A stretch of DNA of 64,000 nucleotides from Chloroflexota bacterium (GTDB taxonomy: Bacteria > Chloroflexota > Anaerolineae > UBA1429): the NCBI GenBank assembly GCA_012719135.1, contig JAAYAW010000035.1, positions 3,799 to 67,798 on the forward strand, in the 5' to 3' direction. This document shows, in pieces, positions 15,701 to 35,146 of the stretch (position 1 is its first letter; each line of letters begins with the position of its first letter). Below the pieces are notes generated by a model, which ran no database searches, was not told the DNA's origin, and saw only the letters and a program-made list of their open reading frames with translations. The position numbers and the translations under genes are program-made.

Positions 15701-16045
15701 GGCCAGGGCCTCGGAGGGTCCTTCCCTGCGCGAGGCCGCCAAAAAGGCATCGATAGCCTCTTCAAAACGGCGTTCCAGGAGATGCGCGTAGCCCCCGTAG
15801 GGTATTCGCCCGGCGGGGGCAGCGGCCAGCCGGCGAGGCAGGTGAAAGCGATAGATGGCATACAGGAAGGCCGTGGCGCGCACGCGCTCAAAGAGATTTG
15901 TGCTGGAGCGCCTAAAGCTATCGAGCACGGCGCACTCCGCCTGGAGCTCTGCCAGGGAGAGCGGGACGCACAGGTCTCGGAGCGACCGATCGCGCACGGC
16001 TGGATCGGGTGACAGGATGGTATCAAGCAGCGCGGAACTAGGCAT
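12722..16045 (-). CDS. Fused sugar-1-kinase (GHMP family) / UDP-sugar pyrophosphorylase (UDPGP/USP-like), ~1107 aa
   Basis: GHMP motif II-like ([22 protein letters not shown]) and motif III-like ([16 protein letters not shown]) in the N-terminal 60%. The C-terminal domain carries the nucleotidyltransferase signature [23 protein letters not shown]. The start at the internal Met (ATG 16043-16045) overlaps the upstream gene stop (16038-16040) by 8 nt. Confidence 0.6.
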
Positions 16046-18720: not shown

Positions 18721-19422
18721 ATGGAGAGAGAAGAGAACCGCTGGATGCCGCCGTCGCCTCACCGCGAGGCGATCGAAGCGGACCTCCGAGCCGGACGGGC
18801 GCGCATCGTGGAGCGCGGCCACAACGTGCCGCCACTCCTCGTCTTTGAGGATGGGGGGGTGATCGAGCTCCCGCGGGTCAGGTTGGCAGAGACGCGCCGG
18901 GGGCTGCAACTGGTCGCTGCTGATGAGCCCGCCACCGGCGGCGAGACGCGCTTTGGCGATGTGTGCGGGACGGTTGACGAGATCCTCGGCACGCTGCGCG
19001 AAGTCGCGCCAGGCGCCGAACTGGATCCCGATGACCTGAATGCGCTCATCGAGGACATTGGCTATATGCTCGCCCGAATGACGAGGCGCAGCCAGCAGTA
19101 CCTGGCGTTTTTCGAGGGCGTGCAGTCCATCGCGGCGACGCTGCTCTCGCTGGAGCGCCCCAATGTCGCTTCGGCACAGGAGCGCCTGGACGCGTTGCGC
19201 AGGGCCCTCTGGGATCCGGGCGAACGGAACGCGGCGCGGCTGGAGGATATCGCCGGTCGGGCCGAGCACGCGCGCGCCCTGGCCCAGAGCCTGGAGGATT
19301 ACCTGGCGCAGTGCAAACTGGCCGCCACGCGTGTGGGCACCCTCTATGGGGAGGTCCGCGGCGGGCGTGCCTGGGCCCTGGCCCCGGATCAGGGCACGCC
19401 AGAGCCGGGATCCAGCGGCTGA
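18721..19422 (+). CDS. Hypothetical protein
   Basis: 233-aa ORF with good GC3. No recognisable motifs. It sits in the divergent intergenic slot opposite the methyltransferase. Confidence 0.45.
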   Translation: MEREENRWMPPSPHREAIEADLRAGRARIVERGHNVPPLLVFEDGGVIELPRVRLAETRRGLQLVAADEPATGGETRFGDVCGTVDEILGTLREVAPGAELDPDDLNALIEDIGYMLARMTRRSQQYLAFFEGVQSIAATLLSLERPNVASAQERLDALRRALWDPGERNAARLEDIAGRAEHARALAQSLEDYLAQCKLAATRVGTLYGEVRGGRAWALAPDQGTPEPGSSG

Positions 19423-19441: not shown

Positions 19442-20536
19442 TCACCCGGCGCCGACGCCCGTGATCTGGGACAGACGCTCAAAGAAGGCTCGCTTGAAGG
19501 GCGTGTTGATGCCCCAGTTCACCGGGGGCGTCTGATAGCCACTGAGGGCGGCCCAGGGCGCATCGTCGCGATAGCGTGGCCGCGGGACATAGTCTTCCCA
19601 TGGATCGGCGCCCTGGCCGTGCCAGCCTTGATCGTAATACCCCCAGGAGACGCCGTGCGTCCAGGCGACCTCCAGGTTGGGCAGAGCCGGGGAGTCCTCG
19701 TTGATGATGATCGGCTTTGGTGCAAGGAAGTACGAGGGCATGCTCTGCACCGCCTCCAGCGCCGCGGCGAGTTGTAGAGGGCGCAGCCCGTTGCCGTGCA
19801 GCAAGACGTAATCCGCCGTACGGACGAGCGAGGGGGGCGGCATCCCGCGGCCCGTGTCTACCTCCGCACCGCCGCCGCTGGTAGAAAACAGCAGACTGGG
19901 GAACTCGGCCTTGAGGGCGCTGAGCATCTCGTGCTGACGCTCGGGGCGAAAGATCGCATAGGGCGTCTGGTCGACGACGACGTCGATCTCATTGGCCAGC
20001 TCGACGAGCACGTTTCTATGGCCGCAGGAAGCCAGGAAGGTGCAGGCCTCCCGGGCCGCGCGCCAGATGGCGTCCGCGTTTGCCATGCGCAGCAGCATCG
20101 TCCAGTAGAAGAAGCCGACGATGGTGACCATGCCCAGGGCGTCGGTGCGCCGGATGACTCGTGCCAGCCGGTCGGCGTAGGCCGGCTTGAGTTCGCCTTC
20201 CGGCGTAAAGCCGTTATTGTCATAATGACGGTTGATCTCGGGGACATAGAGCGGCCCACCGCCCTGCAGGTTGACCGTCACGGCGAGGACTCCATGGTCC
20301 CGCCAGTGGGCGAGGGCGGCACAGAACTCGGCCGTGTTGCGATCCGGATCCCAGGCTCCCGTGTCCGGATAGGCCCAGTTGGCGCTCGTCTGGGGAACCG
20401 CATCGTCAAAGATCGCCTGAACCGCTCGCACGTTGAACAGTAACCCCTCTACCGGGTGCCCGTCGTAGACTCTACCGGCATAAGTCCGCTTGCCATCCAG
20501 ACACACGTATTGGCCGTCAAATGAGACTGTAGTCAT
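19442..20536 (-). CDS. Clan GH-A TIM-barrel glycoside hydrolase (GH5-like), cytoplasmic
   Basis: 364 aa with no signal peptide. Candidate acid/base NE motif in LVELANEID and candidate nucleophile in PIIINEDSP, with spacing typical of a (beta/alpha)8 GH-A enzyme. Confidence 0.45.
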   Translation of the reverse strand: MTTVSFDGQYVCLDGKRTYAGRVYDGHPVEGLLFNVRAVQAIFDDAVPQTSANWAYPDTGAWDPDRNTAEFCAALAHWRDHGVLAVTVNLQGGGPLYVPEINRHYDNNGFTPEGELKPAYADRLARVIRRTDALGMVTIVGFFYWTMLLRMANADAIWRAAREACTFLASCGHRNVLVELANEIDVVVDQTPYAIFRPERQHEMLSALKAEFPSLLFSTSGGGAEVDTGRGMPPPSLVRTADYVLLHGNGLRPLQLAAALEAVQSMPSYFLAPKPIIINEDSPALPNLEVAWTHGVSWGYYDQGWHGQGADPWEDYVPRPRYRDDAPWAALSGYQTPPVNWGINTPFKRAFFERLSQITGVGAG

Positions 20537-20759
20537 ACCGATTCTCCTTCGGTTGCTCTGCCCTCAGCCAACGGATAGTACCGCATGGAAACGGATCCGT
20601 CATCCCTGTGCGCAGGGGCCAGGGGCCGAGCCCTCGCAAGCGGTAGCGTTGCGCCGGCCTTGAGACGATGCCGGCGAGGGGTATTGTTCCCCCGGCGCGC
20701 CCGTGCTATGATTGCGCGAATGAGCTGTGATCGCAACAGGCATCAGTAGAGGAGAACGG

Positions 20760-22097
20760 ATGAGTGACCTGAACGAGGCCGGATGGGCCGAGCGTCTGCG
20801 GCAGCGCATCGAGGATCGCAGCGCGAATGTGTGCGTCATGGGTCTGGGATATGTGGGGCTTCCTCTGGCCGTACTGTTGGGGCAAGCCGGTTTCCACGTG
20901 ACCGGGATCGACCCGGATCGAGAACGCTGTGCGGCGCTCTTGCGCGGTGAGAGCTATGTGGGAGATGTGCCCGCTGATGCCATCGCCGCGCTGACGGCGA
21001 GCGGGCATATGGACGCCTCTGCCGATCCGGAGCCCCTGGCCCGGGCCGATGCCGTCATCATCTGCGTACCGACGCCGCTGAGCAAGTCCAAGGATCCGGA
21101 CATCTCGTACATCGTGGGGGCCGTAGAGAACCTCGCCCGCCACCGGCATCCAGGGATGCTCGTGGTGCTGGAGAGCACCACGTACCCCGGGACCACCGAA
21201 GAGATCCTCATGCCCCGGTTGGCGAACGACGGGTTCGCCATCGGCGAGGACATCTTTGTGGCCTACTCGCCGGAGCGCGTCGATCCCGGAAACCGCAACT
21301 ATAGCATCCGGAACACGCCCAAGGTGATCGGCGGGGCGACGCCCGCCTGCCTGAGTCTGGCGGTGGCCCTCTACGGGAGCATCGTGGAGCAGACGGTGCC
21401 CGTCTCCAGCCCTGCGGCGGCCGAGATGGTCAAGATCCTGGAGAATACCTACCGGGCCGTCAACATCGGCCTGGCCAACGAGATGGCCCAGATCTGCCAG
21501 CGCATCGGTCTGGACGTGTGGGAGGTGATCGCTGCCGCCAGCACCAAGCCCTTTGGTTTCAGTCCCTTTTACCCGGGGCCGGGCCTCGGCGGGCACTGCA
21601 TCCCCATCGATCCGCTCTACCTCACCTGGAAGATGCGGAGTCTGAGCGTGCAGACACGCTTCATCGAGCTGGCCGATGTGGTGAACACCGACATGCCAGC
21701 CTATGTAGTGCGGCGCGTTCAGGATGCTCTGAACGATATCGAGCGGCCTCTCCGCGGGAGCCGTGTGCTCGTTCTCGGCGTCGCCTACAAGCCCGATGTG
21801 GCGGATCTGCGGGAAAGCCCGGCACTGACGATCATCGAGCTCTTGCAGGATCGGGGCGCGCAGGTTCTGTACCATGACCCCTTTGTGCACCAACTCGACC
21901 TGCCCGGCGGAGAGAGGCTGGCCGGGATCGAACTCGCCGAGGAGGACCTGGCGCTCGCGGATTGCGTCCTCGTGCACACCGCACACAGCAGTTACGATTG
22001 GGGTTGGGTGGCACGGAACGCACGCCTCGTCTTTGACACGCGCGGCGTGATCCAACCAGGAGAGGTTGCCAATGGCGCCCTCTACTACCGGCTCTAG
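20760..22097 (+). CDS. Nucleotide-sugar dehydrogenase, UDP-N-acetyl-D-glucosamine/mannosamine 6-dehydrogenase family (WecC/TviB-like)
   Basis: Rossmann motif [16 protein letters not shown], catalytic Cys region ([17 protein letters not shown]), and a UDP-binding C-terminal domain. The start was moved to ATG 20760 (AGAGGAGA RBS). Confidence 0.85.
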
Positions 22098-22845
22098 GTC
22101 CGGCGACCCACGGGCCGAGCGCATCAGCGGCGGTCCGGGGCTCTACATTCGGCGGCAGTCGGGCGGCGTGGGATGGTACGCGCTCGAACAGCTGCTCCAG
22201 AGCCTGGCGGGGTGGATTCCAAGCATCCTCGGGATCGCCGTCCGTGCCGTTCTGTACCGGCTGATGCTGCGCATGGACGGCTGGGCGGCCATCGAGCGCG
22301 GTGTGCGGCTGCGCTATGCGCGCCTGATCCGGCTGGGGGCGGGCAGCTATCTGGATGAGGGTGTGTACGTTCACGCGTGTCCGGGCGGAGTGTCCATTGG
22401 GGCGCGAACGCTGGTGATGCATGGGGCCGTGCTGCATGTGTACAACTTTCGTCAGCTACCGCATGCGGGCATCCATATCGGCCAAGATAGCCTCGTGGGA
22501 GAGTACAGCGTTATCCGGGGGCAGGGCGGCGTCACGCTGGGAGATCGCGTGTACACCTCTCCCCTGGTTCAGATCGTCGCCGTGAACCATGTCTATGATG
22601 ATCCCAGCCGCTCGTTCACGGACCAAGGGTTGACCGCCGAGGGGATCATAATCGAAGACGATGTATGGATCGGGTCAGGTGCGGTGATCACCGATGGGGT
22701 GCGGATCGGCCGCGGCGCGGTAGTCGCCGCCGGCGCAGTGGTGACGAGCGATGTGCCCGCGCACACCGTGGTCGGTGGCGTGCCCGCCCGCGTCCTGCAC
22801 GAGATCGATGGCACGCCCCGTACCGCCGGGAGATCGATCTACTAG
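22072..22845 (+). CDS. Hexapeptide-repeat (left-handed beta-helix) sugar O/N-acetyltransferase
   Basis: Repeating [LIV]-G-x-x-x-x hexapeptides ([52 protein letters not shown]). The ATG at 22072 lies 6 nt after AGGAGAGG and overlaps the dehydrogenase 3' end. Confidence 0.75.
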
Positions 22846-22896: not shown

Positions 22897-24144
22897 ATGA
22901 ACACAGCGCAGGAGCGGGATAGCTTACAGGAGCCAAGAACCGCAAGTATGCTTTCGGTGGTGATCCCGGCATACAACGAAGAGCAGGGCCTCGCGGCGAT
23001 CATCGAGCGGGTTCTGGCGGTGCGGCCGGCCCTGGCGCTGGATGGCATCGGGCTGGAACTCCTGGTCGTCGACGACGGCTCGCGGGACGGCACGGCGGAG
23101 ATCGCGAGGCGGTACGCCGACGTGCGCCTCGTCCAGCACAGCACGAACCGCGGGTACGGCGCGGCGCTCAAGACGGGGTTTGCGGCGGCCTGTGGCGAAT
23201 GGCTGGGGTTTATGGACGCGGACGGCACATACCCGCCGGAGGAGCTTCCCGCGTTGTGCGCCGTCCTGTGCACGGGCGACGGAGCGGACCTGGTGGTCGG
23301 CTCGCGACGCTCGGGGCAGAGCAGCGAGATGCCCTTTCTGCGTCGGGTGGGCAACCGGCTATGGAGCGGCCTCGTGTCTACGCTCGGAGGCCGGAGGGTG
23401 CTGGATCCTGCCAGCGGGATGCGCGTGTTCCGCCGGGAGATACTCGCCAGGCTGTATCCGCTGCCCGATGGCCTGAACCTGACGCCGGTGATGAGCACCC
23501 GTGCAATCCACGAGGGGATCCGTCTCGCAGAGATCCCCATTCCCTATCGGGAGCGCCAGGGGCGGTCCAAGCTCAGCGTCGTCAACGATGGGATGCGTTT
23601 CCTTGGTACGATTGTGTGGACGGTTCTCACGTACAACCCGGCGCGGCCACTGGGCTTGCTGGGCGTGGGCCTTTTCTCCCTGGGTGTGCTGGCGGCTCTG
23701 GGGTTGGTCATCGCGCGGTTGGCCGGCATCACGTCCCTGGGGCCTATGGGCGTCCTTGTGGCCTATCTGGCGGCGCTGCTGCCCGTGGTGGGCTTTGACC
23801 TATTTGCACTTGGCGCAACCTTCAACTATGCCGTGTCTCTCTTTCACGCCCGCCCGGTACGGCAGGGGCTCTTTGGCCGGCCCATCTTTGATCCTCCGCT
23901 GGACCGGCATTTCTGGTGGATGGGCCTGCTGGCCGGTGGGGCCGGGATCGCCCTGGGGGCCGCGAGCCTCGTGCTGGGCCTCAACGGCTGGGGCGTTGAG
24001 CGCCTCTGGTTGTACCTTCTCGGTGCCGCGGCCTTGACTATGCTCGGCCTGAACCTGCTCGTGTTCTGGTTGATCATGCGGGTGCTGGAGGAGTTGAGCC
24101 ACCGGCAGGCGGACATCCAGGCCGATCTGGCTTGTGTGCCATGA
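22897..24144 (+). CDS. GT2 family polyprenyl-phosphate glycosyltransferase (GtrB/DPM1/ArnC-like) with C-terminal TM helices
   Basis: SVVIPAYNEE, VVDDGSRDGT and DADGTY (DxD) motifs. Four C-terminal hydrophobic segments, as in GtrB-type Und-P sugar synthases. Confidence 0.8.
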   Translation: MNTAQERDSLQEPRTASMLSVVIPAYNEEQGLAAIIERVLAVRPALALDGIGLELLVVDDGSRDGTAEIARRYADVRLVQHSTNRGYGAALKTGFAAACGEWLGFMDADGTYPPEELPALCAVLCTGDGADLVVGSRRSGQSSEMPFLRRVGNRLWSGLVSTLGGRRVLDPASGMRVFRREILARLYPLPDGLNLTPVMSTRAIHEGIRLAEIPIPYRERQGRSKLSVVNDGMRFLGTIVWTVLTYNPARPLGLLGVGLFSLGVLAALGLVIARLAGITSLGPMGVLVAYLAALLPVVGFDLFALGATFNYAVSLFHARPVRQGLFGRPIFDPPLDRHFWWMGLLAGGAGIALGAASLVLGLNGWGVERLWLYLLGAAALTMLGLNLLVFWLIMRVLEELSHRQADIQADLACVP

Positions 24145-25802
24145 GCGATACCGGCGTTGAGCGGCCTCGAGGGCGGACGGTGCCTCAGCGCGTATTCGCG
24201 GAGACGCCTCCGAACGCGGACGGGCTTGGCATCGCCACAGGCGCCGGCGCGGGGGAGCGCGTGGACATTCTGTTCGTGAACCCGCCCGCGCCCGACCGCG
24301 GGATCTGGATTCGGAGCCAGCACCGCGTCGGGAGGCGGTCACGCGAGGGAATGATCTGGCCGCAGGCCGATCTGGCGCAACTGGCAGCGCTGTTCCCCGA
24401 CAAGCGCGTGGCGATCATCGACGCGATTCCATCGCGCATGACGTGGGCGGCCTTTGCGGAGGAACTCAAGCGCCTGCAGCCCACGTTCTACCTCACCCAG
24501 GTGACGGCGCCGACGCTGGAGAACGACATGTACGGCGCGTTTCTCGCGCGGTCGGGTGGTGCGACCACGATCGCCATGGGGACACACGTCACACCCATGC
24601 CGCTATCCACGCTGGAGGCGTATCCGGCTCTGGACTATTGCCTGGTGGGAGAGCCCGAGCTGACGCTGCGCGAGTTGGTGGATGCCCTCTGCCCTGATGA
24701 AGCGGATCATCTCCGGGCCGTCGCGCCGGATACCGGTGCGGCCCTCGAAGGCCTTCTCGTCGCGTCGGACGCGGGGTGGAGGCCCGTTACGCAGCGCGGA
24801 ACGTCCACCGAGGAGCGCCTGGCGACGATACCCGGACTGGCGTGGCGCCGGAACGGCCAACCTGCTCTGAACGCTCCCCGCGCGCTCATAGAGGACCTGG
24901 ACGCGCTGCCCCTGCCACGGCACGATCTGCTGCCGCTGGCGCGCTACCGGGCGCCGCTCGTATCCGGCGCCTACTCCTTTGTGGTTACCAGCCGCGGATG
25001 CCCCGGCGATTGCCGGTTCTGCATCAAGCACGTCTCATACGGGCGCTCGGTGCGGTTCCGCTCGCCAGAGAATGTGCTGCGGGAGATCGAGATGCTGGCG
25101 GGACTGGGAATCCGCAGCATCCACATGTACGCCGATCTGTTTACCGTGAATCGTGATCACGTGCTGGGCATATGCCAGGGCCTGCTGGACCGCGGACTCA
25201 AGATCCGCTGGACGTGCAACAGCCGGGTCGACTTTGTCGATCCAGAGATGCTCGATCTCATGAAGCGCAGTGGCTGCTGGATGATCTCCTGGGGGATCGA
25301 ATCCGGGGACGTGGAGATGCTCCGGCGGATGCACAAGGGCATCACCCTGGAAGGGGTCCGCCAGGCGCTCGAGTGGTCCCGAAGGGCTCACATCCGCAAC
25401 TGGGGCTACTTTATCATCGGGCTCCCCGGGGAGAGTGAGCGTTCCATACGCCACACAATCGATTTCGCCAAGACTCTGCCCCTGGACCTGGCTCTCTTTC
25501 ACATCGCGGCCCCTCACCCGGGAACACCCTTTTTCTACGAGGTCGTGGACCAGGGATGGTTTCGGCCGGGGACCCGATGGGAACGCGTCGATATGGACCG
25601 CTCCACGGTGCTCGATTATCCGGAGCTGAGCGCCGAGGATCTGGAGGCGTGGGCACGGCGCGCGCTGCGCGAGTGGGCCCTGCGGCCGGGGCCGGTCTGC
25701 ACCTACGGTAGGATGCTGGCCACCAGTCCCTCGCTCTGGAGGGCTGCCTTGGCGATCGGGCTGGAGAGCCTCGGCTGGCTCCGTGGGGCGGGCAGCCGGT
25801 GA
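24141..25802 (+). CDS. B12-binding domain-containing radical SAM protein
   Basis: N-terminal cobalamin-binding Rossmann-like region (DILFVNPP..., VAIID...). Radical SAM CxxxCxxC (SRGCPGDCRFC) followed by an ELP3/TIM-barrel region. Its ATG overlaps the GT2 stop (ATGA). Confidence 0.85.
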   Translation: MSDTGVERPRGRTVPQRVFAETPPNADGLGIATGAGAGERVDILFVNPPAPDRGIWIRSQHRVGRRSREGMIWPQADLAQLAALFPDKRVAIIDAIPSRMTWAAFAEELKRLQPTFYLTQVTAPTLENDMYGAFLARSGGATTIAMGTHVTPMPLSTLEAYPALDYCLVGEPELTLRELVDALCPDEADHLRAVAPDTGAALEGLLVASDAGWRPVTQRGTSTEERLATIPGLAWRRNGQPALNAPRALIEDLDALPLPRHDLLPLARYRAPLVSGAYSFVVTSRGCPGDCRFCIKHVSYGRSVRFRSPENVLREIEMLAGLGIRSIHMYADLFTVNRDHVLGICQGLLDRGLKIRWTCNSRVDFVDPEMLDLMKRSGCWMISWGIESGDVEMLRRMHKGITLEGVRQALEWSRRAHIRNWGYFIIGLPGESERSIRHTIDFAKTLPLDLALFHIAAPHPGTPFFYEVVDQGWFRPGTRWERVDMDRSTVLDYPELSAEDLEAWARRALREWALRPGPVCTYGRMLATSPSLWRAALAIGLESLGWLRGAGSR

Positions 25803-27766
25803 TGCCCACGAGGCGCCTCTCCTGGCGGGATGCCTGGCCAACCCTGCAGGTGGGCTTGGCCCTGGTGGCATGCGGCCTGTGGTATGCCACGGGAGGGGCC
25901 GTCTGGTACCGGGTAACTTCCGTCGGCCTCTGGCCGGCTCTCCTGGTGGTGGCGATGTGGCCGCTGCAGCGTCTGGCCCGAGGCCGTTGGGAACGTCTCC
26001 AGGGCGTGCATCTCTGGTTGGGCATCTTTCTGCTCACCGCTGTCGTGAGCACGGTTGTGGCCTACAACAGGCCGGTCGCCGTAGCCAAGTTGGGGACGGT
26101 CATCGGCGCTGCAGGCCTGGCCCTGGCGCTATCGCATCAGCGGACACGGCGGCAGATCTATCTCTCGCTGGCCCCGCTGGGCCTGGGCCTTGCGGCGCTT
26201 GCGCTCTACTCCCTCGCCGGCAGCGACTGGGATGCTCAGGCTCTCAAGTACCCCGCGCTGGCCGAGGCAGGCCGATCCCTCACAGGATGGATCGCCTGGA
26301 CTCCGGGGCACCGAATCACGCCGAACGTGGCTGGCAGTATGCTGGCAGCGCTGTTGCCCTACGGCGTTGCGCTGGCGGGGCTCGCGCCGTCGCGCTGGCT
26401 GGGCATGCGCCAGCCGGGACCCCAAGCGGCCATCCGAGGCTGTTGGGCCCTTGCGGTGGCGCTCGGCGTATCGGCACTGATCCTCACGGGCTCTCGAGGC
26501 GCCTGGGGCGGTAGCCTGGCGATGGTCGCGGGCTGGGCGTTGTGGCGTTGGCTGGGCCGCCTTGCGCCGCCTGGGCCGGCAGGCTACCGGCGGCGGCTGA
26601 TCGGATTCGGTCTCATGGCCCTGGCGGGCGGCCTCGCTGTGGTCCTGGGAGGCTACCTGGTTCTCGTGCTGACGCTGCCGGGGGCCGCCGCGTTGGCGAA
26701 CCGGATCGATCTGATCACCCGCAGTCTATCCCTGGCGCAGGACTATGCGTATACCGGCGTGGGCCTTGGCCAGTTCCCCATTCCGTATTCGGTGTATACC
26801 CTGCTGATCCATGTGGGGTACATCGTAAACCCCCACAACACGCTTGTGGGGATCCTGGTGGAGCAGGGAGTGCTGGGGATGGCGGCGCTGATCCTCCTCT
26901 GGGTGAGCGCGCTCAGAGCCTTTGTTCGCACCCGCGCGCACGCCAGCCCGGGGCTGGGCATAGTGTTGGAGGCCAGTGTGGCCTCGCTCATGACGATGGT
27001 CGTTCATGGGATGGTGGATTCGGGACTGTACGGCAGCCGGGGGCTTCTGATCATGCTGGTGCCCGTGGGTGTGATCATCGCCTGTGCGCGGCACGTCGAG
27101 TCTGAGACCGCGGCCGCCGAGGGTGAGCGCAGCCCCGAGGCCTCGCGCACGCGAGACCGGACGGCTGTGCCGATCCTGGCGGGGTTGGCTGTCATCCTCC
27201 TGGTGCTCGTGGCCACCGCAGGCCGGCCGCACACAGCCTGGCTCGCCAATCGCGGCGCTCTCGAACAGACACGCCAGGAACTCGCCTTGTACGATCCCGA
27301 GCGATTCGCCGAGCTCTCTTTGGATGACGCGCGCCTGCGCGCAGATCTGGCGGAGGCCGAGCGCTTGCTGGCCGCGGCCGCGCGCCATCCCGGCCACCCC
27401 AGCGCTCCCCGGCGCCTCGCCGCCATCTATCTCTCCAGGAGCCAGTACCCGGACGCACTCGCCGTGCTGAAGGCCTCCTGGGATGCGGGCAGTCGGGATT
27501 CGACGACGCGGCTGTTGTACGGGGATGCGCTCATTGCGGCCGGCGATCCGGCCGGCGCCGCAGCGACCGTGAAGGGTATACGCTGGGCCGCCGAGCGGAT
27601 CGAGGGGCAGGCCTCGTCACGCTACGTGCCGAGGGGAGAGTGGGCTCAGGTCGCTTACGCCTATGAGGCGGTGGCTCGCCTGAACGGCACTGGAGAGGCG
27701 GATCTCGGGCGGATCAATGAGGCACGGCAGCGGGCGGGGCTTGCGCCGCTGGAAGCATTACCATAG
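25799..27766 (+). CDS. O-antigen ligase (Wzy_C) domain membrane protein with C-terminal TPR-like soluble domain
   Basis: About 12 TM segments. Wzy_C signature LTGSRGAWGGSLAMVAGW and a periplasmic loop. A C-terminal ~200-aa Ala/Leu-rich helical repeat region is TPR-like. Its start overlaps the rSAM stop. Confidence 0.7.
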   Translation: MMPTRRLSWRDAWPTLQVGLALVACGLWYATGGAVWYRVTSVGLWPALLVVAMWPLQRLARGRWERLQGVHLWLGIFLLTAVVSTVVAYNRPVAVAKLGTVIGAAGLALALSHQRTRRQIYLSLAPLGLGLAALALYSLAGSDWDAQALKYPALAEAGRSLTGWIAWTPGHRITPNVAGSMLAALLPYGVALAGLAPSRWLGMRQPGPQAAIRGCWALAVALGVSALILTGSRGAWGGSLAMVAGWALWRWLGRLAPPGPAGYRRRLIGFGLMALAGGLAVVLGGYLVLVLTLPGAAALANRIDLITRSLSLAQDYAYTGVGLGQFPIPYSVYTLLIHVGYIVNPHNTLVGILVEQGVLGMAALILLWVSALRAFVRTRAHASPGLGIVLEASVASLMTMVVHGMVDSGLYGSRGLLIMLVPVGVIIACARHVESETAAAEGERSPEASRTRDRTAVPILAGLAVILLVLVATAGRPHTAWLANRGALEQTRQELALYDPERFAELSLDDARLRADLAEAERLLAAAARHPGHPSAPRRLAAIYLSRSQYPDALAVLKASWDAGSRDSTTRLLYGDALIAAGDPAGAAATVKGIRWAAERIEGQASSRYVPRGEWAQVAYAYEAVARLNGTGEADLGRINEARQRAGLAPLEALP

Positions 27767-27804: not shown

Positions 27805-30800
27805 ATGAGACTCTTGAGGATCACTATCGTTACGTCTGTTATAGTGTCTCTGTTTGCGCTCTGCTGGCCTCTTCGCGGCATGGCGGAGGGGCCTTCGTGG
27901 GGACGCCCCGTAAACCTGTCCCGCTCAGGCGCGGCGTCCGATCCGTCCCTGCTGTACGAAGGCGACCAGACCTACGCCCTCTGGTGGGATAGCTACGATG
28001 GCGTCACCGTGGCCGTGCGAAGCGATGGTGAATGGGGGAATCCTACGCCGGTTCCGATCTCGGACTATCTCTACGATGCCTCCGGCTCGATCCGCATCAA
28101 CGCCACGACCGGCGTATACCTCCGGGATACGATCCGTTCGGGCAGCATCACGGCGGATGGCACCGGGGGTGTGGCGGCCTTTTTCCTCGCGCGTGCCGAG
28201 GGCTCTGGCCCTCTGGCCCTGAGGCAGACGCGAGCTGCGCTGGACACGTTCGATTGGGCAGCGGCACAAACCGTGGTCAGTGCTGCATCGGGGTGGCGGG
28301 CCGTCCCCGGACCCGACGGAACGCTGCACCTTGCGGTGTTCTATACGGGCCGCGATGAAGGGACTCTGCCGGGGGTCTACTACCTTCGCTCGGAGGACGG
28401 CGGCGAAAGCTGGAGCGATATGGTTCTCGTGGCCGAATCGCTCTACGTGCGCCGGGCGACCCCTGAGAAGAGCCATATCTCTCTTTCCGCCGTGGAAGGC
28501 GGGGCGATCTATCTCGCCTGGAACGAGCCCGGCACTGGGCGAGCGCTCTGGAGTTGGAGCCAGGACGGCGGCGACACCTGGAGCCCCTCGCGCCTGGTGG
28601 CCCCAGACGATCCCAAGGCGAGCAACGCGCATCTGGAGAGCCTCGGCGACGGGCGCGTCCTGCTCCTGTGGGAGGGAACCGGTACGGGCGATGCCCCGGC
28701 GCTCTATTCCAGCGTATCGCCCGACGGAGGCAGCAATTGGCCGAAGCCCGATGCGGTGCTGAGCCTGCTGAACGGGGGGGCTGCGGGGTTGGCGCTTCAA
28801 CCTCATCCTGCCGGCGGGCTCTTGCTCGCTGCGGGCGGCGTGGCCGACGGGCCGGCGCTGGCCCGGTTCGGCAAGCTCGGGGAGGAGATAGTGGCGGACG
28901 CCTGGTCCGATTGCGTTACGCTGCCGCACGTAACGGGCGCCGCCGAGCGCCTTCGGGTGGCGAGTGTGGAGCGCTGGCAGGCCGTGGCCGCGGCGGGAGA
29001 GATCATTCTGACGGGGGTGGACCCTTCAGGGGACGTTTGGGCCCTGAGCAGTGCCATCGATACGCTGGAATGGCCTACGGTTGTGGCGCCCACCTGGGAG
29101 GAGGATGCCGATAGTAATGCCGGCCACACCCTCGCTGCAACCGGTGCGGTGGGCCCACCGACGCTGGTTCAGGGGAACGGGCCGGCTCGGCAGGCCTTCT
29201 GGTGGGACTCTGTTGAGGGATTGGTGAGCGCCTATAGCGACGGCGCCGTCTGGTACAGCGCTCAGGCCGCGCGGGCGGAGGCCACGGAGAGCGGTGTTCC
29301 CGGGCCCGTGCCGTTCGGCGCGCAACTGGCGACGAACTCGGCAGGAGACGTGATTGCCTGCTGGATCGCGCGTGAAGGTGCGGCTGAAGGACCGGTCCTG
29401 TGCCGCAGCCAGGCAATCGGCCTCCACCTCTGGGCAGATGCGGCGGTTGTCGCCGAGAGCGCCACGGCTTTCCGACTGCGGGCGGGCGGCGACGGGGCGC
29501 TGCACCTCCTCCTTGCGCGCTCCGCGGAGGCGGAGGAAGCCTCCGCCGGGCTGTACTATCTGACGTACTCTGAGGAGGCAGGAGAATGGAGCGAGCCTGT
29601 CCAGGTTGCGCCGGTTGGGTTGATCGAGGGTAGCGCCCTGTCGGACTCGGATCTGGATGTCGATGCTACCAATGGGCAGCGCCGGGCCGCATGGCTCGAT
29701 CCCATGGCCGGGGCGCTGTTCTACTCCGGCTCGGCAGATGGCGGGGTCACCTGGAGCGCTCCTCTCAACGCCTCGGAGGGTGTGGCAGAGCCGGCTCACC
29801 CGCAGGTAGCCGCCGACGGGGACAACACGATCTATGTGTTCCAGACGGCGGGGAGCGGGTTGCTCCAGACGCGTATCGACGCATCCGGAGGCCTTGTCGA
29901 CGGCCCGAAGAGCATTCTGTCGTCCTACTCAGGAGCGGCGCTCCGCTCCGGCTGGCAGTTGGCCGGGCAGGGAACCGATCGTCTGCTGCTGGTCGTGCCA
30001 GAGTCTCCGGTGGCGGTGGCCATCGCCACCTGGCTCGGCGACGGCTGGAGTGAGCAGGTGGTCCCGCTGAGCGGCGCGGCCAGTAGCACACCGGCGGACG
30101 AGGCGGCGGCCATGGCGGCGCACTATCAAGAGGGCCTCCTATCGATCACCACAGTGAGCGAAGCCGGCCAGGCGGTGCTCTGGGATCTGCCGGCTGCAGC
30201 CTCGGGGTGGGGACAGGAGGAAGGCGAGATCTGGTCTTGGCCCGTCAGGTCGGCTTCGCTGGCCGAAGGGGTGGGACGCCCCGCCGCACAGATCGACGGC
30301 GACCTCCGTGTCCACGTCCTCTGGCACACGGGCTCGCCGTACGGCGACGCGCTTTGGTACGCGCAATGGCTGGATACCAAGTGGAGCGCACCCGTTCAGG
30401 TGGTGCGGCCGGATGAGGGGATCGCCCGCGACCCGGATCTCGCGGTGATCGGCGAGCATCTGCACGCGGTTTGGTCGGCCGGATTCGATGGCGGACCGGA
30501 GGCAACCGTGACGTACACATCGGATGCCTCTGCGGCATCAAGCTGGCCGTTGGGCCGTGCGCTGCCTGGCCCGGTCTCGCCGCGCAATGCGATTGGGGCA
30601 CACCCGGCCCTGACCGCCGATCTGGCCGGCACGGTGCACGCCGTGTATGCTGTGCCGATCAACCAATACCGCGGGATCTACTACACCCAGTCGTCTGACC
30701 GCGGCGAAACGTGGCGCGCCAGCTCGCTGGTCTTTGATGCCGCCGTGGCGGGATGGGCCATGGTGGACGATCCGGCGATCGCCGTCGACCATGACGGGAC

Positions 30801-31611
30801 GCTATACGTCGCCTGGGTGCGGCAGGACCTCGCCGGGATCTCAAGGTCACGCGGGCTGTATGTTGCCCAGTCCGACGATGGAGGCGAACGCTGGAGCGAG
30901 CCGCGGTTCGTCTCTGAGGGGGAATGCGAGAACATCACGCTGGTCCTGGCGGCGGGCGGAGGGCCTCATCTGCTGTGGCAGGAGGCCGGCTCGGAACACG
31001 GCGTCTGGGAGAGCTACAGTTCGGACTCTGGCGCACGTTGGAGCCTCCCATCGCGGGTGCGCGGTTATGCGGCCCTGGAGGGGGCGGCCGGCATCGCAAC
31101 AGACGGCCAGGGGCGTCTGTTCCTGGCGGGCATACAGGCAGAGGATGGCGGCCGGCAGGCCTTGCTTACCGCCAAGTGGGAGCGCAGCACGCAGCAGTGG
31201 ACGATCGATGAGCCGGTGTTGCTCCCACGCGCCGTGACCGAGGCGACCGATGTATCACTGGCGTTGGAGCCCGATGCGGGGCGCCTGGCGGCTATCGTTT
31301 CCGCGCGAGCTCTCTCCGAGGGGGAGGGGGATGAGCCCGTGCTCCTGGCCATGAGTCGGCCGGTCGAACCTCGCGGGGTCGGGCCAGAGTGGCTCGGCGA
31401 CGCTCAGGTGGCGCCCACGACCCAGGCTCAGCCCACGACTATGCCGTCCGTCACGCCACAAGCATCAGTGCCGGCCGAGGCTCCCACTTCGGCGAACGGG
31501 ACGGTCGCCGTCGGACCGATGACGGTCCCGATCCTCTCCATCGGCGGCATCGTCCTGGTGGCTCTCTTGGTGGCGGGTGTGCTTGTGGTGAGGGGGCGGG
31601 CCAGGCTCTAG
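27805..31611 (+). CDS. Large Asp-box (BNR) repeat surface protein, sialidase/glycosidase-like beta-propeller(s), signal peptide + C-terminal TM anchor
   Basis: N-terminal signal peptide (MRLLRITIVTSVIVSLFALCWPLRGMA). At least 8 SxDxGxTW Asp-boxes (SEDGGESWS, SQDGGDTWS, SPDGGSNWP, SADGGVTWS, SSDRGETWR, SDDGGERWS, SSDSGARWS...). C-terminal Thr/Pro/Ala linker, then a hydrophobic helix and the RGRARL tail. Confidence 0.7.
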   Translation: MRLLRITIVTSVIVSLFALCWPLRGMAEGPSWGRPVNLSRSGAASDPSLLYEGDQTYALWWDSYDGVTVAVRSDGEWGNPTPVPISDYLYDASGSIRINATTGVYLRDTIRSGSITADGTGGVAAFFLARAEGSGPLALRQTRAALDTFDWAAAQTVVSAASGWRAVPGPDGTLHLAVFYTGRDEGTLPGVYYLRSEDGGESWSDMVLVAESLYVRRATPEKSHISLSAVEGGAIYLAWNEPGTGRALWSWSQDGGDTWSPSRLVAPDDPKASNAHLESLGDGRVLLLWEGTGTGDAPALYSSVSPDGGSNWPKPDAVLSLLNGGAAGLALQPHPAGGLLLAAGGVADGPALARFGKLGEEIVADAWSDCVTLPHVTGAAERLRVASVERWQAVAAAGEIILTGVDPSGDVWALSSAIDTLEWPTVVAPTWEEDADSNAGHTLAATGAVGPPTLVQGNGPARQAFWWDSVEGLVSAYSDGAVWYSAQAARAEATESGVPGPVPFGAQLATNSAGDVIACWIAREGAAEGPVLCRSQAIGLHLWADAAVVAESATAFRLRAGGDGALHLLLARSAEAEEASAGLYYLTYSEEAGEWSEPVQVAPVGLIEGSALSDSDLDVDATNGQRRAAWLDPMAGALFYSGSADGGVTWSAPLNASEGVAEPAHPQVAADGDNTIYVFQTAGSGLLQTRIDASGGLVDGPKSILSSYSGAALRSGWQLAGQGTDRLLLVVPESPVAVAIATWLGDGWSEQVVPLSGAASSTPADEAAAMAAHYQEGLLSITTVSEAGQAVLWDLPAAASGWGQEEGEIWSWPVRSASLAEGVGRPAAQIDGDLRVHVLWHTGSPYGDALWYAQWLDTKWSAPVQVVRPDEGIARDPDLAVIGEHLHAVWSAGFDGGPEATVTYTSDASAASSWPLGRALPGPVSPRNAIGAHPALTADLAGTVHAVYAVPINQYRGIYYTQSSDRGETWRASSLVFDAAVAGWAMVDDPAIAVDHDGTLYVAWVRQDLAGISRSRGLYVAQSDDGGERWSEPRFVSEGECENITLVLAAGGGPHLLWQEAGSEHGVWESYSSDSGARWSLPSRVRGYAALEGAAGIATDGQGRLFLAGIQAEDGGRQALLTAKWERSTQQWTIDEPVLLPRAVTEATDVSLALEPDAGRLAAIVSARALSEGEGDEPVLLAMSRPVEPRGVGPEWLGDAQVAPTTQAQPTTMPSVTPQASVPAEAPTSANGTVAVGPMTVPILSIGGIVLVALLVAGVLVVRGRARL

Positions 31612-31685
31612 CTGCCGCGCCGAGGTAAAAAAAGGACGAGCGAAGCGAGGGGGGTTGCTCCGCCCGTCCCGTGTCTCCCGCCTGG

Positions 31686-34600
31686 CTACGGGCGGAAGGT
31701 TATGGGCATCATCAAGTGGTAGTCGAACTGCTGCGCTTCGACTTTAAAGCTCCCGACGGTAGACCAGGGCCCCTCAGAGGTGCAGCCGCTCTCTGTGCAG
31801 ACGGCGCGGACGCGCCAGAAGTAGTCACCCGCCGGCGCGTGGCTGGCCAGTCGCATGCTCGTGCGTACGGTCGTGGTATCCATCGCCAGCGAGCTGAGCG
31901 AGGCGTCCGAGTAGATCTCCACCTCATAGTAGGAAGCGTTAGCGACCGTCTGCCACGCGAGCTCGGGCTCTTCGTTATAGCCAAAGGTTGTTGCAGCCAG
32001 CGGCGCGACCAGCGATACGGCTGCAGGCAACGGGCAGCTGAGCGTGGTGAAGGACCACCAGGGGCCCGCAGTGGGGCCGTTCAGCCCGACGGAGACGACC
32101 TGCCATTCGTAGACTGTAGCCTCGACCAATTCACCCGGATAACAGCTGGCAGAGCTCAGGTTGGTGCATACGCGTGTCCCCGAGCCGGACCCGCCGGTGC
32201 GCAGATATACGTCGTAGGTTACGTCCTCACCCGGGCAGGTGTGCCCGCCGCACCAGCTCAAAGTGACATCCACTGCCACGCCTGTGGCATCGTCTGCCGG
32301 GGTAGGGTCATACGGAACTGTTGGCGGCACGGTACAGGGCAACTGATCCGTAGTGAACTGCCAGAGGGGCCCGGTGGTGCTGCCCGCCGCGCTGGTCGCC
32401 ACGACCTGCCAGGTATAGGTCTCTCCACCGATCAACCCGCCAGGATTACACGTTGTATCAGAGCCTGAACAGACGAGAGTAGAGGCGCTGCCGCCGGTCC
32501 CCAGGTAGACCTCGTACGTGACGGTCTCGCTCAAGCAGGTGTGCCCCCCAGTCCAGGACAGCGCGCTATCGACGCTCACAGCCTGCGCCGCGTCGGCGGG
32601 GCTGGGCGAAGTGGGTGTGTAGGGCGCCACGGCGCAAGGATCGCTGGAGCCCATGCTCGAGAGGGAGAGCGATGGATCGCCGTACAGGTTGGCGCCCAGA
32701 AGGTTCATCCAGAACCCGCCCGTGGAGTAGAGTGCGCTGTAGGCCCGGAAGTAGGCCAGGGCATCCCCGATCGCGTCGCCATTGGCCGCCAGCCGCTCGC
32801 TGACCCGGTAGCCGATGGAGGCATTGTCCGCCCAACCTGCACCGGTCTTGGGAGTCCAGGCGCCCGTCATGTACCAGCTTAGACGCGAGGAGCTGATGGT
32901 GCCCACCGAGCCGTTCACCAGGAGCCGGTATCCGAGGTTGTCCAGACGCTCCGGTTGCCCGTTCAGGCAGGCGACCTGTACGACAAAGGATGGCCGATCG
33001 TTACTGAGCTGGTAGGTGTCACCCGAACTGAGAAACGTGGGTGAACTGGTCTCCTGCGAGTACTGGGTGATGCGGTCCGCCCGCGTGCTGTCGTTGACCC
33101 AGACGCGCCTGTAGGCCCCCATGTAGTTGCCGTGTCCCCACCAGGTCACGAGGCCGTAGCCTTGGTTCCACGCGCTGATCATATTCGCCGTGCTGAGGGC
33201 GGCATTGGTTAATGTCAACGGGTAGGCTGACCCATCCCCATAGATGCCAGACTTTTCGTAGAGTGTATACGCATCCAGGCTGGCCTCCGCGAGCATGGAT
33301 TTCACGGCCTCGCCCCAGTCATCGCCGTAGGTGCGCTGGCTGAGCTGGTAATCGGCCGTGCCATCGTTGTTATTATCCTGGGGGCCGTGGTTAGAGATGG
33401 CCGCGGCGATGATGGCGCGCTGGCGCCAGGACAGGTCGCCAGTGGCGCTGGCATAGGCCACGGAGCGGGCCAGGATCGCATCCAGATCGGCAAAGGTGCC
33501 GTAGAAGGGAATCCGGCCCACGGTAACCTCGGGCAGCCGGTCAATGCCGCCTGTGCCGATATCGGTGAGTTCGCCATAGGTACCGTTGCCGTTGAGATCC
33601 CAGGTGCCACTCAGGTCCGAGTAGAACATGTCCGTGGGAGTGCTCTGGTACGGGTTCGTGAGCTTCATCGGCACGCTGGTCGCCGAGCTAAAGGCCGTGG
33701 GATCGGGATTGCCCACGAGGAGCACATAGAGGATCCCCTCGGCGGCATAGTGCGCCTGGAGCCAGCTGCGGATGTTGTTGGCGCGGGCATCGGCGGTTGA
33801 CCCAGATAGATACGTGGTTGCCGTGTCAGCCGCGCCCTCCGTGACGACCTTGACGGTGTACCCGTTGGCCTGTTTGTTGGCGACGAACGCAGCGAGTTGC
33901 GCACTGCCATCGCGGATGGACGCCGTGGTGATGATCACATAGTCGTTCGTCGCAGCGGCCTCAGGCCCGTCCGGCAGGGTACCCCGGCCACCGGCCAGCG
34001 GCGCCTGCGGGTAAAAGGCGGTGCGATCCTCAGCGTTCACCAGTTGCGGGGCCAGCATGTCCCAGGCCACTCGCTCAGCGGCGTCGGCCTGTATAACAGA
34101 ACGAAGCTCCTGGCTGAAGGTCACCAACGCGGAGGCGTCGGCGCTCTGCCGCAGCGTGCCCTGAACGGGGTTGTAGGACAGGGGCCAGTAGGAGAGGGTG
34201 ACGACGCGGTAGCCGCGTTGCTCGCCGATCGATTCGATCGTGACGGGATCGGACGGCCAGAAGGCGTCCGCCTCGTAGATGGCCCTGAGTCCGCCTTCGG
34301 CAAGATCGTCCGCCTGCAGTCCGTTCCAGTTCTCCTGCGCCATCTCGTCGCTGGAGATCAGCGGTCCGGCGGGCGGCACAAAGATCGACCCGCCCAGGTC
34401 GGCCGACCCAGATGCCTCAAAGGAGACCGCCACAGAACCAAGGTCTGCGACGGAGGGCAACAGCACCTGCAGTGTTCGCACTGGAAGGCGCGGCTCCCCC
34501 GGGCGCGCATTCAGATCGTATCCCGGAAGCGACAGAGCCTCTTCCATCGGCAGGCTCAGGTCCGGGCTCGCCGCCATCGGCAGATCCACGCGGATGGCAC

Positions 34601-34724
34601 CCGTAGCCGGGGTGCCCAGTGCCACGGACGGCCACGCGCCGAGTGCCAGAACTACCACCAGCACCAGCGCGAGCAGCGCCTGTCCCCGTGCTTTGTTCAA
34701 GATCCCAACTGACTCTCTTCTCAT
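31686..34724 (-). CDS. Secreted peptidase C25 (gingipain-family, clan CD) with three C-terminal fibronectin-III-like domains
   Basis: Signal peptide. C25 catalytic-domain hallmarks (DYVIITT..., His in WWGHGN, Cys in VVQVACLNGQ). It is followed by three ~90-aa repeats with the FN3-like pattern (TYEVYLGTGG...TYTWQVVAT). Confidence 0.7.
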   Translation of the reverse strand: MRRESVGILNKARGQALLALVLVVVLALGAWPSVALGTPATGAIRVDLPMAASPDLSLPMEEALSLPGYDLNARPGEPRLPVRTLQVLLPSVADLGSVAVSFEASGSADLGGSIFVPPAGPLISSDEMAQENWNGLQADDLAEGGLRAIYEADAFWPSDPVTIESIGEQRGYRVVTLSYWPLSYNPVQGTLRQSADASALVTFSQELRSVIQADAAERVAWDMLAPQLVNAEDRTAFYPQAPLAGGRGTLPDGPEAAATNDYVIITTASIRDGSAQLAAFVANKQANGYTVKVVTEGAADTATTYLSGSTADARANNIRSWLQAHYAAEGILYVLLVGNPDPTAFSSATSVPMKLTNPYQSTPTDMFYSDLSGTWDLNGNGTYGELTDIGTGGIDRLPEVTVGRIPFYGTFADLDAILARSVAYASATGDLSWRQRAIIAAAISNHGPQDNNNDGTADYQLSQRTYGDDWGEAVKSMLAEASLDAYTLYEKSGIYGDGSAYPLTLTNAALSTANMISAWNQGYGLVTWWGHGNYMGAYRRVWVNDSTRADRITQYSQETSSPTFLSSGDTYQLSNDRPSFVVQVACLNGQPERLDNLGYRLLVNGSVGTISSSRLSWYMTGAWTPKTGAGWADNASIGYRVSERLAANGDAIGDALAYFRAYSALYSTGGFWMNLLGANLYGDPSLSLSSMGSSDPCAVAPYTPTSPSPADAAQAVSVDSALSWTGGHTCLSETVTYEVYLGTGGSASTLVCSGSDTTCNPGGLIGGETYTWQVVATSAAGSTTGPLWQFTTDQLPCTVPPTVPYDPTPADDATGVAVDVTLSWCGGHTCPGEDVTYDVYLRTGGSGSGTRVCTNLSSASCYPGELVEATVYEWQVVSVGLNGPTAGPWWSFTTLSCPLPAAVSLVAPLAATTFGYNEEPELAWQTVANASYYEVEIYSDASLSSLAMDTTTVRTSMRLASHAPAGDYFWRVRAVCTESGCTSEGPWSTVGSFKVEAQQFDYHLMMPITFRP

Positions 34725-34859
34725 GATCCAGGTCCCCCCACTTGCCCGCCCCTCGCGGGCTGCCTGCCTCGCAGGCAGAGCACGGTTCGCGCACCAGTAG
34801 CCAAATTCATGGTGCCTTTTGGTCTCGCTCTGCCCACATGATAGCGCGTGGGGTACCTG

Positions 34860-35010
34860 GTTGGCAACATTTATGCCGTGTTTACGTAAGTGGATATCTG
34901 ATTACATCATCTCAGTATGTGTAAATCATACATAAGCTGGCGCATATTCGTTTCTCGCGTTATCAGCAAGTGCACATCGTTATACTATAGTATATATTGT
35001 TCTCAGCGGG
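34860..35010. promoter_or_regulatory. AT-rich (~35% GC) intergenic island containing perfect 14-bp palindrome TATACTATAGTATA (34981-34994); probable promoter/operator region of C25 peptidase gene
   Basis: Sharp local GC drop in a 67%-GC genome. Contains TTACGTAA and the 14-bp perfect palindrome. Located 135-285 nt upstream of the peptidase start codon (34724). Confidence 0.35.
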
Positions 35011-35146
35011 CATTGAACGAGGCCTGACGACCGGCCCAGGGTAGAGCGGAGACGTCTGCGTAAAGACGCCAAAGAGGGATCAGGGTGTTCTCACAAGCTT
35101 TTTACGTATCGGGGGCGTATCGCGGGGATAAGGGAAGGGTAAACAG

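Follow-up and report, generated by a model that had tools for sequence, protein, structure and literature searches.

We use sequence profiles, structure models and comparisons of gene order to study a pair of facing genes in a 64-kb stretch of Chloroflexota DNA (hereafter the window, 66% GC overall). The first, which we call the BNR gene after its Pfam family, is an open reading frame (ORF) at 27805..31611 on the plus strand; it encodes a protein of 1268 amino acids (aa) with Asp-box repeats and the C-terminal end TPQASVPAEAPTSANGTVAVGPMTVPILSIGGIVLVALLVAGVLVVRGRARL. The second, convergent with it, encodes a secreted cysteine peptidase of the gingipain family C25. The initial annotation of this DNA, made from the sequence alone, described the tail of the BNR protein as a linker followed by a motif, a transmembrane (TM) helix and a basic end, and suggested, as a speculation, that this tail serves as a sorting signal for the BNR protein, with the C25 peptidase as its processing or sorting enzyme. 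The ORF, its quoted end and the four-part tail are present as described; the proposed pairing fares worse. We favor, with a probability of roughly 0.7, a reading in which the locus holds two independent units: a membrane-anchored BNR ectoprotein that belongs to an envelope-glycan operon, and a separate convergent gene for a C25 protease that is its neighbor in one clade.

The envelope-glycan operon and its last gene

Six genes on the same strand, with overlapping or very short junctions, make up the cluster, and the BNR gene comes last. The five genes before it encode a dehydrogenase, an acetyltransferase, a family 2 glycosyltransferase (GT2), a B12-binding radical SAM enzyme and a polytopic Wzy_C membrane protein with C-terminal tetratricopeptide repeats (TPR); their coordinates, with those of all other features, are collected in Table 1. 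The Wzy_C/TPR gene overlaps the radical SAM stop by 4 nucleotides (nt) and stops 38 nt short of the BNR start, and no terminator-like site is predicted between position 27000 and that start. The Wzy_C domain itself is well supported (E = 5.6e-13, 49.4 bits against a cut-off of 31.7, residues 218-365) and is followed by a TPR_19 match at residues 516-560. The GT2 enzyme resembles polyprenyl-phosphate sugar synthases (AglJ, ArnC and DPM1-like), with partial NCBIfam matches to AglJ and to dolichyl-phosphate hexose transferase that stay below cut-off. For the radical SAM enzyme, which is 60-79% identical in related loci, the best NCBIfam match is HpnJ at 183 bits, under the 577-bit cut-off.

This arrangement is conserved well beyond the window. 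A scan at one genome per species, with a profile built from a 10-sequence alignment, returns 43 BNR loci (numbered with an L below), almost all labelled Chloroflexota or Anaerolineae, and BNR homologues are annotated as Anaerolineae wherever the source gives a name. An orthologue is also present in L029, a Thermoflexus metagenome-assembled genome. Directly 5' of the BNR gene we find the Wzy_C/TPR gene in 20 of the 32 species loci that have at least 2.5 kb of upstream sequence. Where at least 6 kb is available (24 species loci), GT2 is present in 18, the Hexapep acetyltransferase in 16, the radical SAM enzyme in 15 and Wzy_C in 13. The dehydrogenase gene is conserved upstream in L012, L015-L017, L019 and L020. 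The order Hexapep, GT2, radical SAM, Wzy_C/TPR, BNR is retained even in loci whose BNR homologues are just 28-30% identical (L005, L007, L008, L024, L030, L032, L036 and L041).

In the distant loci, the genes 3' of the BNR gene encode a second, smaller BNR_2 protein of 480-570 aa, a Wzm/Wzt ABC exporter and glycosyltransferases; the block of second BNR_2 protein and exporter lies at L005 13872-17600, L007 19630-23227 and L008 18967-21690, and is also found in L036 and L042. In these other lineages an exporter block fills the position after the BNR gene. The exporter and an initiating phosphoglycosyl transferase stand beside orthologues in L005, L007, L008, L024, L036, L041, L042 and others, and are not adjacent in the window or its clade. 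Several distant clusters have a WbaP-type initiating transferase at their upstream end, and L005 also encodes a pyruvyltransferase. Between the Wzy_C/TPR and BNR genes of L007 (6104-10004) lie acyl-carrier-like, AMP-binding and asparagine-synthase-homologue genes.

Two further observations concern the window upstream of the cluster. Between a methyltransferase gene and the cluster start are two coding-like ORFs of 233 and 364 aa (18721-19422, plus strand, and 19442-20536, minus strand) with no Pfam match. Further away, a 1154-aa ORF (12722-16186, minus strand) has a C-terminal UDPGP domain (UTP-glucose-1-phosphate uridylyltransferase, residues 935-1051) as its sole recognized domain, its roughly 900 N-terminal residues having no family match.

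Table 1. Features of the BNR and C25 locus, in window coordinates.
Feature	Position	Strand	Basis
UDP-glucose/GDP-mannose dehydrogenase family gene, first of the same-strand cluster	20727..22097	+	Pfam UDPG_MGDP_dh_N, central and C domains, E 5e-40 to 5e-23
Hexapeptide-repeat acetyltransferase	22066..22845	+	Pfam Hexapep, E 1.8e-14
GT2 glycosyltransferase with C-terminal membrane region	22897..24144	+	Pfam Glycos_transf_2, E 1.9e-33
B12-binding radical SAM enzyme; start overlaps the GT2 stop	24132..25802	+	Pfam Radical_SAM, E 2.9e-26, and weak B12-binding match
Polytopic membrane protein, Wzy_C (O-antigen ligase / O-oligosaccharyltransferase-type) with C-terminal TPR	25799..27766	+	Pfam
Putative signal peptide of the BNR protein, residues 1-26, MRLLRITIVTSVIVSLFALCWPLRGMA	27805..27882	+	Sequence inspection by eye
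Beta-propeller 1, about residues 27-430, three Asp-boxes (residues 196, 252, 305)	27883..29094	+	AlphaFold model m85e4bf2d22f4
Beta-propeller 2, about residues 438-806, Asp-box at residue 643	29116..30222	+	AlphaFold model
Beta-propeller 3, the BNR_2 domain, about residues 812-1186	30238..31362	+	Pfam BNR_2 and domain model
Pro/Thr/Ala-rich stalk, residues 1187-1235	31363..31509	+	Sequence
C-terminal anchor, residues 1236-1268: juxtamembrane motif VGPMTVPILSIGG, TM helix, basic end RGRARL	31510..31608	+	Family consensus
Intrinsic terminator of the C25 transcript, 14-bp stem then U7, inside the 74-nt gap	31627..31670	-	RNA fold
Secreted C25 (gingipain-family, clan CD) cysteine peptidase, 1012 aa	31686..34724	-	Pfam Peptidase_C25
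Catalytic Cys586 codon (VACLNG)	32967..32969	-	Codon checked
Catalytic His531 codon (WWGHGN)	33132..33134	-	Codon checked
Intergenic region 5' of the C25 gene	34725..35146	.	GC profile and promoter match

Three predicted propellers and the sialidase question

Now we consider the product of the last gene. The BNR protein matches Pfam BNR_2 (PF13088) at residues 885-1132 (E = 2.6e-23, 83.2 bits against a cut-off of 31.4) and carries canonical S-x-D-x-G-x-x-W Asp-boxes (n = 7), so that both marks of a BNR_2/Asp-box propeller protein, the above-cut-off domain and the SxDxGxxW motifs, are present. An AlphaFold model of residues 27-1200 folds into three all-beta propeller domains with a mean pLDDT of 82.5. 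In model m85e4bf2d22f4 propeller 1 is all-beta with pLDDT mostly 85-95, and propeller 3, the best-conserved part of the protein, reaches a pLDDT of 87.5 and a pTM of 0.89 when modelled alone. Propellers 1 and 2 are paralogous, having in common the motif PVNLSRSGAAS...FWWD.FDG. Homologues of about 900 aa cover just about two thirds of the query; from this match coverage we tentatively read them as one N-terminal propeller of the type of 1 or 2 joined to propeller 3. Hydrophobic leader sequences are found at the N-termini of BNR homologues too, and export of the protein is predicted.

Two orthologues depart from the layout seen in the window. One (L009 13133-17356, the same as L019, L057 and L058) is 1407 aa long and carries a LysM domain, which is peptidoglycan-binding, between its BNR_2 regions; going by this domain, its sequence suggests a location of the BNR family at the cell wall. 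In the other (L011 13143-17329, the same as L020) the gene is broken into ORFs of 963 and 438 aa, by a frameshift or pseudogene formation or by an assembly error.

The closest solved folds are propellers that bind or cleave carbohydrate. A Foldseek search of propeller 3 against the Protein Data Bank (PDB) puts PLL/PHL lectins, the PL25 ulvan lyase, the PL42 Rha-GlcA lyase and GH145 enzymes at the top with TM-scores of 0.62-0.66, all of which we take to be seven-bladed propellers, and identity to solved structures is 12-16% throughout the Foldseek matches. Sialidases, six-bladed in the case of GH33, follow at TM-scores of 0.50-0.54, below the lectin, lyase and GH145 propellers. Within propeller 3 the invariant polar residues are N953, R956 and D978, and the motif YAVPxNExRGIYY is invariant as well.

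The initial annotation had offered the exposed propeller as a sialidase or a glycan-binding adhesin, and these two suggestions part ways. That the BNR protein is simply a membrane-tethered exo-sialidase of family GH33 would fit its BNR_2 domain and Asp-boxes, the name 'exo-alpha-sialidase' that NCBI gives to some homologues, the two source records that label homologues sialidases, and Foldseek matches to the sialidases of P. gingivalis and pneumococcus at E of about 1e-10. We nevertheless judge it highly improbable. Similarity to solved sialidases in phmmer is weak (23 bits) and its short best stretches span Asp-box segments, the TM-scores rank sialidases behind the other propellers, and the genomic context of the gene is biosynthetic, not catabolic. 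The catalytic set of GH33 is not conserved either: R956 is the sole invariant Arg of propeller 3, which leaves no conserved Arg triad, and neither a RIP motif nor an invariant Tyr/Glu nucleophile pair is present. The BNR protein is therefore a BNR_2 member and not a demonstrable GH33 sialidase. A surface glycan-binding role of the propellers is still plausible.

The C-terminal tail and the convergent C25 gene

Every orthologue has a Pro/Thr-rich linker at the position of the stalk, the sequence of the linker itself not being conserved, and the stalk of the window's protein holds one Arg/Lys in total. Unlike the stalk that precedes it, the juxtamembrane motif at the stalk/TM boundary is kept across about 40 species (orthologues L004-L043). 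Its family consensus is LGP-x-(S/T)-LP-x(4)-GG, also written LGPxxLPLLxxGG-TM-R/K, and a tail alignment of 20 species shows two invariant Gly, with the Pro conserved at 90% or more. How should such a tail be read? If it were a sorting signal shared among proteins, as first proposed, it should recur on proteins other than BNR orthologues. A tail profile run against 1.84 billion representative proteins (1.84e9, E up to 0.001) returns 27 matches, of which 26 are orthologues or fragments of the BNR family and the remaining one is a spurious repeat protein. A hidden Markov model of the tail run against 3,089 ORFs from 883 kb of related loci matches orthologues alone. Recurrence on unrelated proteins is thus not found in either set, and within these sets the tail is confined to the BNR family, which speaks against the proposal in the terms in which it was made.

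The known signal families give the same picture. The motifs LPXTG, PEP and PGF are not found in the BNR tail, as the initial annotation had correctly stated, and none of the NCBIfam C-terminal sorting models matches any of the four tails scanned at E up to 10; the highest score, 13.2 bits with a cut-off of 29, is that of GVDTG_CTERM. Membership of GlyGly-CTERM or IPTL-CTERM, raised by the resemblance of VPILSIGG to those signals, was ruled out for lack of a model match. Moreover, the second, smaller BNR_2 protein of the distant clusters has a stalk, a TM helix and a basic tail without the juxtamembrane motif, which points to generic type I anchoring. The tail is best read, on these comparisons, as a stop-transfer TM anchor with a family-specific juxtamembrane motif, not as a shared sorting signal.

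A narrower version of the sorting idea would make the tail a dedicated signal, for the sorting or cleavage of this one substrate, read by a membrane enzyme through which the BNR protein would become covalently attached to lipid, glycan or wall. One-target archaeosortase and exosortase systems exist, the architecture of the tail mirrors that of PGF-CTERM, PEP-CTERM and GlyGly-CTERM signals, the motif lies precisely where stalk and TM helix meet and is conserved over those 40 or so species where the stalk sequence is not, and in most loci the gene just upstream encodes a polytopic membrane protein, Wzy_C/TPR. We still regard this version as unlikely: no curated CTERM model matches, the tail is not reused on other protein families, the smaller BNR protein of the clusters is anchored without the motif, and no sortase, exosortase, archaeosortase or rhomboid family is found among the roughly 42 scanned ORFs of the 64-kb window or in the conserved clusters.

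We turn to the gene on the other side of the stop codons. In the C25 protein we see a signal peptide, a region with weak resemblance to a propeptide (residues 73-206, where Propeptide_C25 scores 21.2 bits against a cut-off of 22), a catalytic domain at residues 262-688 (window 32661-33941) and three C-terminal modules resembling immunoglobulin (Ig) or FN3 domains. The catalytic domain aligns to profile positions 1-374 of PF01364 (E = 6.4e-36, 124.8 bits against a cut-off of 23), and H531, G532 and C586 are invariant in an alignment of 26 homologues; both the domain and the dyad of family C25 are therefore present, and from its sequence the peptidase looks catalytically competent and secreted. 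We find 49 C25 homologues, mostly from Anaerolineae, and phmmer of the protein against PDB sequences at E up to 1 finds nothing. The convergent ORF, its signal peptide and both catalytic residues (His in WWGHGN, Cys in VACLNG) thus agree with the initial annotation, which overstated some details. The stop-to-stop gap is 74 nt, not 75. Of the three FN3-like repeats two are plainly similar to one another in sequence, while Pfam fn3 (E = 0.0025, 18.4 bits) and Ig_Rha78A_N (17 bits) both remain under cut-off. The 'AT-rich island' upstream does exist, as about 250 bp at 45-46% GC (34800-35050), and is by its signals an ordinary intergenic promoter region.

These signals bear on whether the two genes are expressed together. 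A sigma-70-like promoter match lies upstream of the C25 start (34867-34838, minus strand), and this match together with the low-GC stretch indicates that the C25 gene appears to have its own promoter. At the other end, the terminator hairpin in the gap folds at -32.3 kcal/mol (z-score -2.2). As far as such sequence signals tell, the BNR and C25 genes are separate transcription units. The simplest view of the C25 gene is that it encodes a secreted protease bearing Ig-like modules, under a promoter and terminator of its own. A serpin of 467 aa with a signal- or lipoprotein-like N-terminus (window 1312-2715, minus strand; Pfam Serpin E = 4.7e-103) is encoded at a distance of 30 kb from C25; among serpins there are some that act as inhibitors of clan CD proteases.

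Is the adjacency of the two genes conserved? The convergent arrangement is kept in one Anaerolineae clade (the window, L004, L009/L019, L011/L020 and L012/L016/L022). In this clade, however, a housekeeping flank (Hpt, an ORF of 140-160 aa, and SCP2) is conserved to the same extent as C25, which makes the adjacency of C25 indistinguishable from background synteny. In the close relatives L014, L015 and L017, which keep an Hpt-hyp-GH2-SCP2 flank, no C25 gene is found between the BNR gene and the flank; in L015, on contig JAXGYO010000002.1, a mere 126 nt separate the BNR stop from the end of Hpt. The BNR proteins of these three loci are 46% identical to the window's, and their tails bear the same VGPLTVPILSIGG motif. 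A C25 gene lies downstream in 3 of the 18 species loci with at least 3.5 kb of downstream sequence, and the adjacency is absent in all distant BNR loci. Seen from the other gene, C25-centred metagenome loci have a BNR neighbor in 2 of 80 cases (L057/L058, the L009 arrangement), and in none of the 77 whose catalytic domain is at most 49% identical; at L013, a C25 homologue of 42% identity has unrelated neighbors. From gene order, then, the C25-BNR adjacency is a clade-specific synteny junction and not a functional pairing.

Two other arrangements at C25 loci can be noted. That C25 homologues generally stand beside stalk-and-TM-anchored proteins was considered and ruled out, since apart from the L057/L058 pair, 0 of 80 C25 loci have a stalk-and-anchor BNR-type neighbor. 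At L103 7362-9905, L109 7275-9989, L113 1136-3781 and L121 21-2609, the ORFs overlapping the C25 match end in tripartite tails with a Cys (…SGGC… TM …RRR), similar to signals of the MYXO-CTERM type. Should these ORFs be the C25 proteins, their tails make the C25 enzymes there look like cargo, not sorter, of a sorting system.

A gingipain-family enzyme acting as a non-canonical sortase on a new C-terminal signal would, if true, amount to a new protein-sorting system, and the proposal that C25 acts on the BNR protein at the tail as a PorU-type sortase or a sheddase, by cleavage, release or transpeptidation, deserves a proper weighing. In its favor, family C25 includes PorU, a known transpeptidase (PMC8545088, PMC4560394), both proteins are predicted to be extracytoplasmic, and the convergent adjacency is retained throughout the clade named above. 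The evidence nonetheless goes against it, and we hold it to be very unlikely. Adjacency is lost in L014, L015 and L017 despite the identical tail motif, fails in all distant BNR loci and in every C25 locus of at most 49% identity, and where it is kept the Hpt flank is kept as well. The C25 protein scores 15.2 bits against the PorU model NF033707, whose cut-off is 420; PorU substrates bear a folded C-terminal domain, not a TM helix (PMC8545088); and the BNR stalk offers a single Arg/Lys. Synteny in particular appears to have largely refuted this sorting role.

Some observations weigh against treating the two genes as independent and the tail as a simple anchor. The GP-x-S/T-L-P ... GG motif is conserved beyond what a plain anchor requires, and this conservation hints at a specific partner or a dedicated processing step. 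The C25 adjacency persists in a clade whose BNR proteins have diverged to 35-46% identity, so weak selection for C25-BNR proximity is possible. It is also possible that the relatives lacking C25 at this position, which were seen as loci and not as whole genomes, have a C25 gene elsewhere.

Interpretation and comparison with known systems

The two-unit reading can be put as a mechanism. The BNR gene would be the terminal gene of the tightly packed envelope-glycan operon, and its product would be exported by Sec and remain behind as a type I protein of the cytoplasmic membrane. The tripartite tail would serve as the stop-transfer TM anchor, with its positive-inside end and family-specific motif, and the Pro/Thr-rich stalk would hold the three propellers off the membrane. 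By analogy with known pathways, we infer that the protein partners the Wzy_C/TPR enzyme at the outer face of the membrane and acts there on the glycan of the operon, which it may bind or trim, or that it may itself be decorated on its stalk. The C25 gene would be a separate convergent gene for a secreted gingipain-like protease.

A more specific proposal goes further, and we hold it as a tentative possibility drawn from the same analogies. The triple-propeller protein might be the dedicated surface glycoprotein of an Anaerolineae-wide pathway resembling the slg clusters described below, or a membrane platform for glycan assembly; its stalk, Pro/Thr-rich in every orthologue, could be O-glycosylated by the Wzy_C/TPR enzyme, and the GP-x-S/T-L-P...GG motif could be a docking element for that enzyme or for a single-substrate processing enzyme. 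In filamentous Chloroflexota, cryo-electron tomography shows an uncharacterized proteinaceous outer layer (PMC13319060), for which the protein would then be a candidate.

What remains once the sorting system is set aside is an uncharacterized membrane-anchored triple-propeller family, found among these loci almost only in metagenome-assembled genomes of Chloroflexota (mostly Anaerolineae), which has its own juxtamembrane motif and is tied to a conserved envelope-glycan operon (GT2, B12-radical SAM, Wzy_C/TPR). Little is understood in molecular terms about the envelopes of filamentous Chloroflexota, so envelope studies could reasonably start from the glycan cluster, and the BNR family may be regarded as a candidate envelope component of these bacteria. 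The cluster so far holds no surprise for specialists.

Among propellers, the BNR protein shares with Pfam BNR_2 and the sialidase-clan propellers, GH33 among them, and with the propellers nearest in structure (GH145, PL25, PL42, PLL/PHL) the Asp-box propeller fold, an extracellular location and structural neighbors that are carbohydrate-active or carbohydrate-binding. It differs from them in its three tandem propellers, in lacking a conserved sialidase catalytic set, and in its identity of 12-16% to any solved structure.

The C25 protein shares with the gingipains RgpB and Kgp and with PorU a full-length Peptidase_C25 domain, the His-Gly and Cys dyad, a signal peptide and Ig-like C-terminal modules. 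Unlike them it comes from Chloroflexota and is without the C-terminal domain belonging to type IX secretion (T9SS), no component of which is seen in the window. From a PorU-type sortase it is further set apart by its failure against NF033707 and by a putative substrate that ends in a TM helix instead of a folded C-terminal domain.

As for the tail, the linker, motif, TM helix and basic end are common to it and to the tripartite signals of LPXTG/sortase, PEP-CTERM/exosortase, PGF-CTERM/archaeosortase, GlyGly-CTERM/rhombosortase and MYXO-CTERM, as is a motif at the TM boundary that is conserved within a family. The BNR motif differs from these signals in being confined to one orthologous family, in matching no model and in that no cognate enzyme gene is found nearby, among the scanned ORFs of the window.

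The closest comparison for the operon is with the S-layer glycosylation (slg) clusters found in Geobacillus stearothermophilus and Paenibacillus alvei, and with ABC-transporter-dependent O-antigen pathways that use a WaaL-type ligase, both of which the cluster resembles in the genes it encodes. The O-oligosaccharyltransferases WsfB and PglL are Wzy_C proteins with a C-terminal TPR, in these pathways the lipid-linked glycan is exported by Wzm/Wzt, the P. alvei cluster includes the Asn-synthase homologue wsfA, and in two Geobacillus species the gene of the target surface protein adjoins the cluster (PMC2943079). The window shares with these systems the Wzy_C enzyme with C-terminal TPR and the tight packing of genes with overlapping ends; the distant Anaerolineae loci share Wzm/Wzt, the WbaP-type transferase and GT2/GT4 glycosyltransferases; and L007 shares the Asn-synthase homologue. 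The differences from slg are equally clear: a Pfam scan recognizes no S-layer protein family or SLH domain in the window, the adjacent protein is a TM-anchored triple beta-propeller, a B12-radical SAM enzyme is a conserved member of the Anaerolineae cluster, and the window's own clade lacks adjacent exporter genes. Judged by its gene content, the cluster is a variant of known glycan and protein-glycosylation clusters, set apart by its conserved B12-radical SAM member and its anchored triple-propeller partner.

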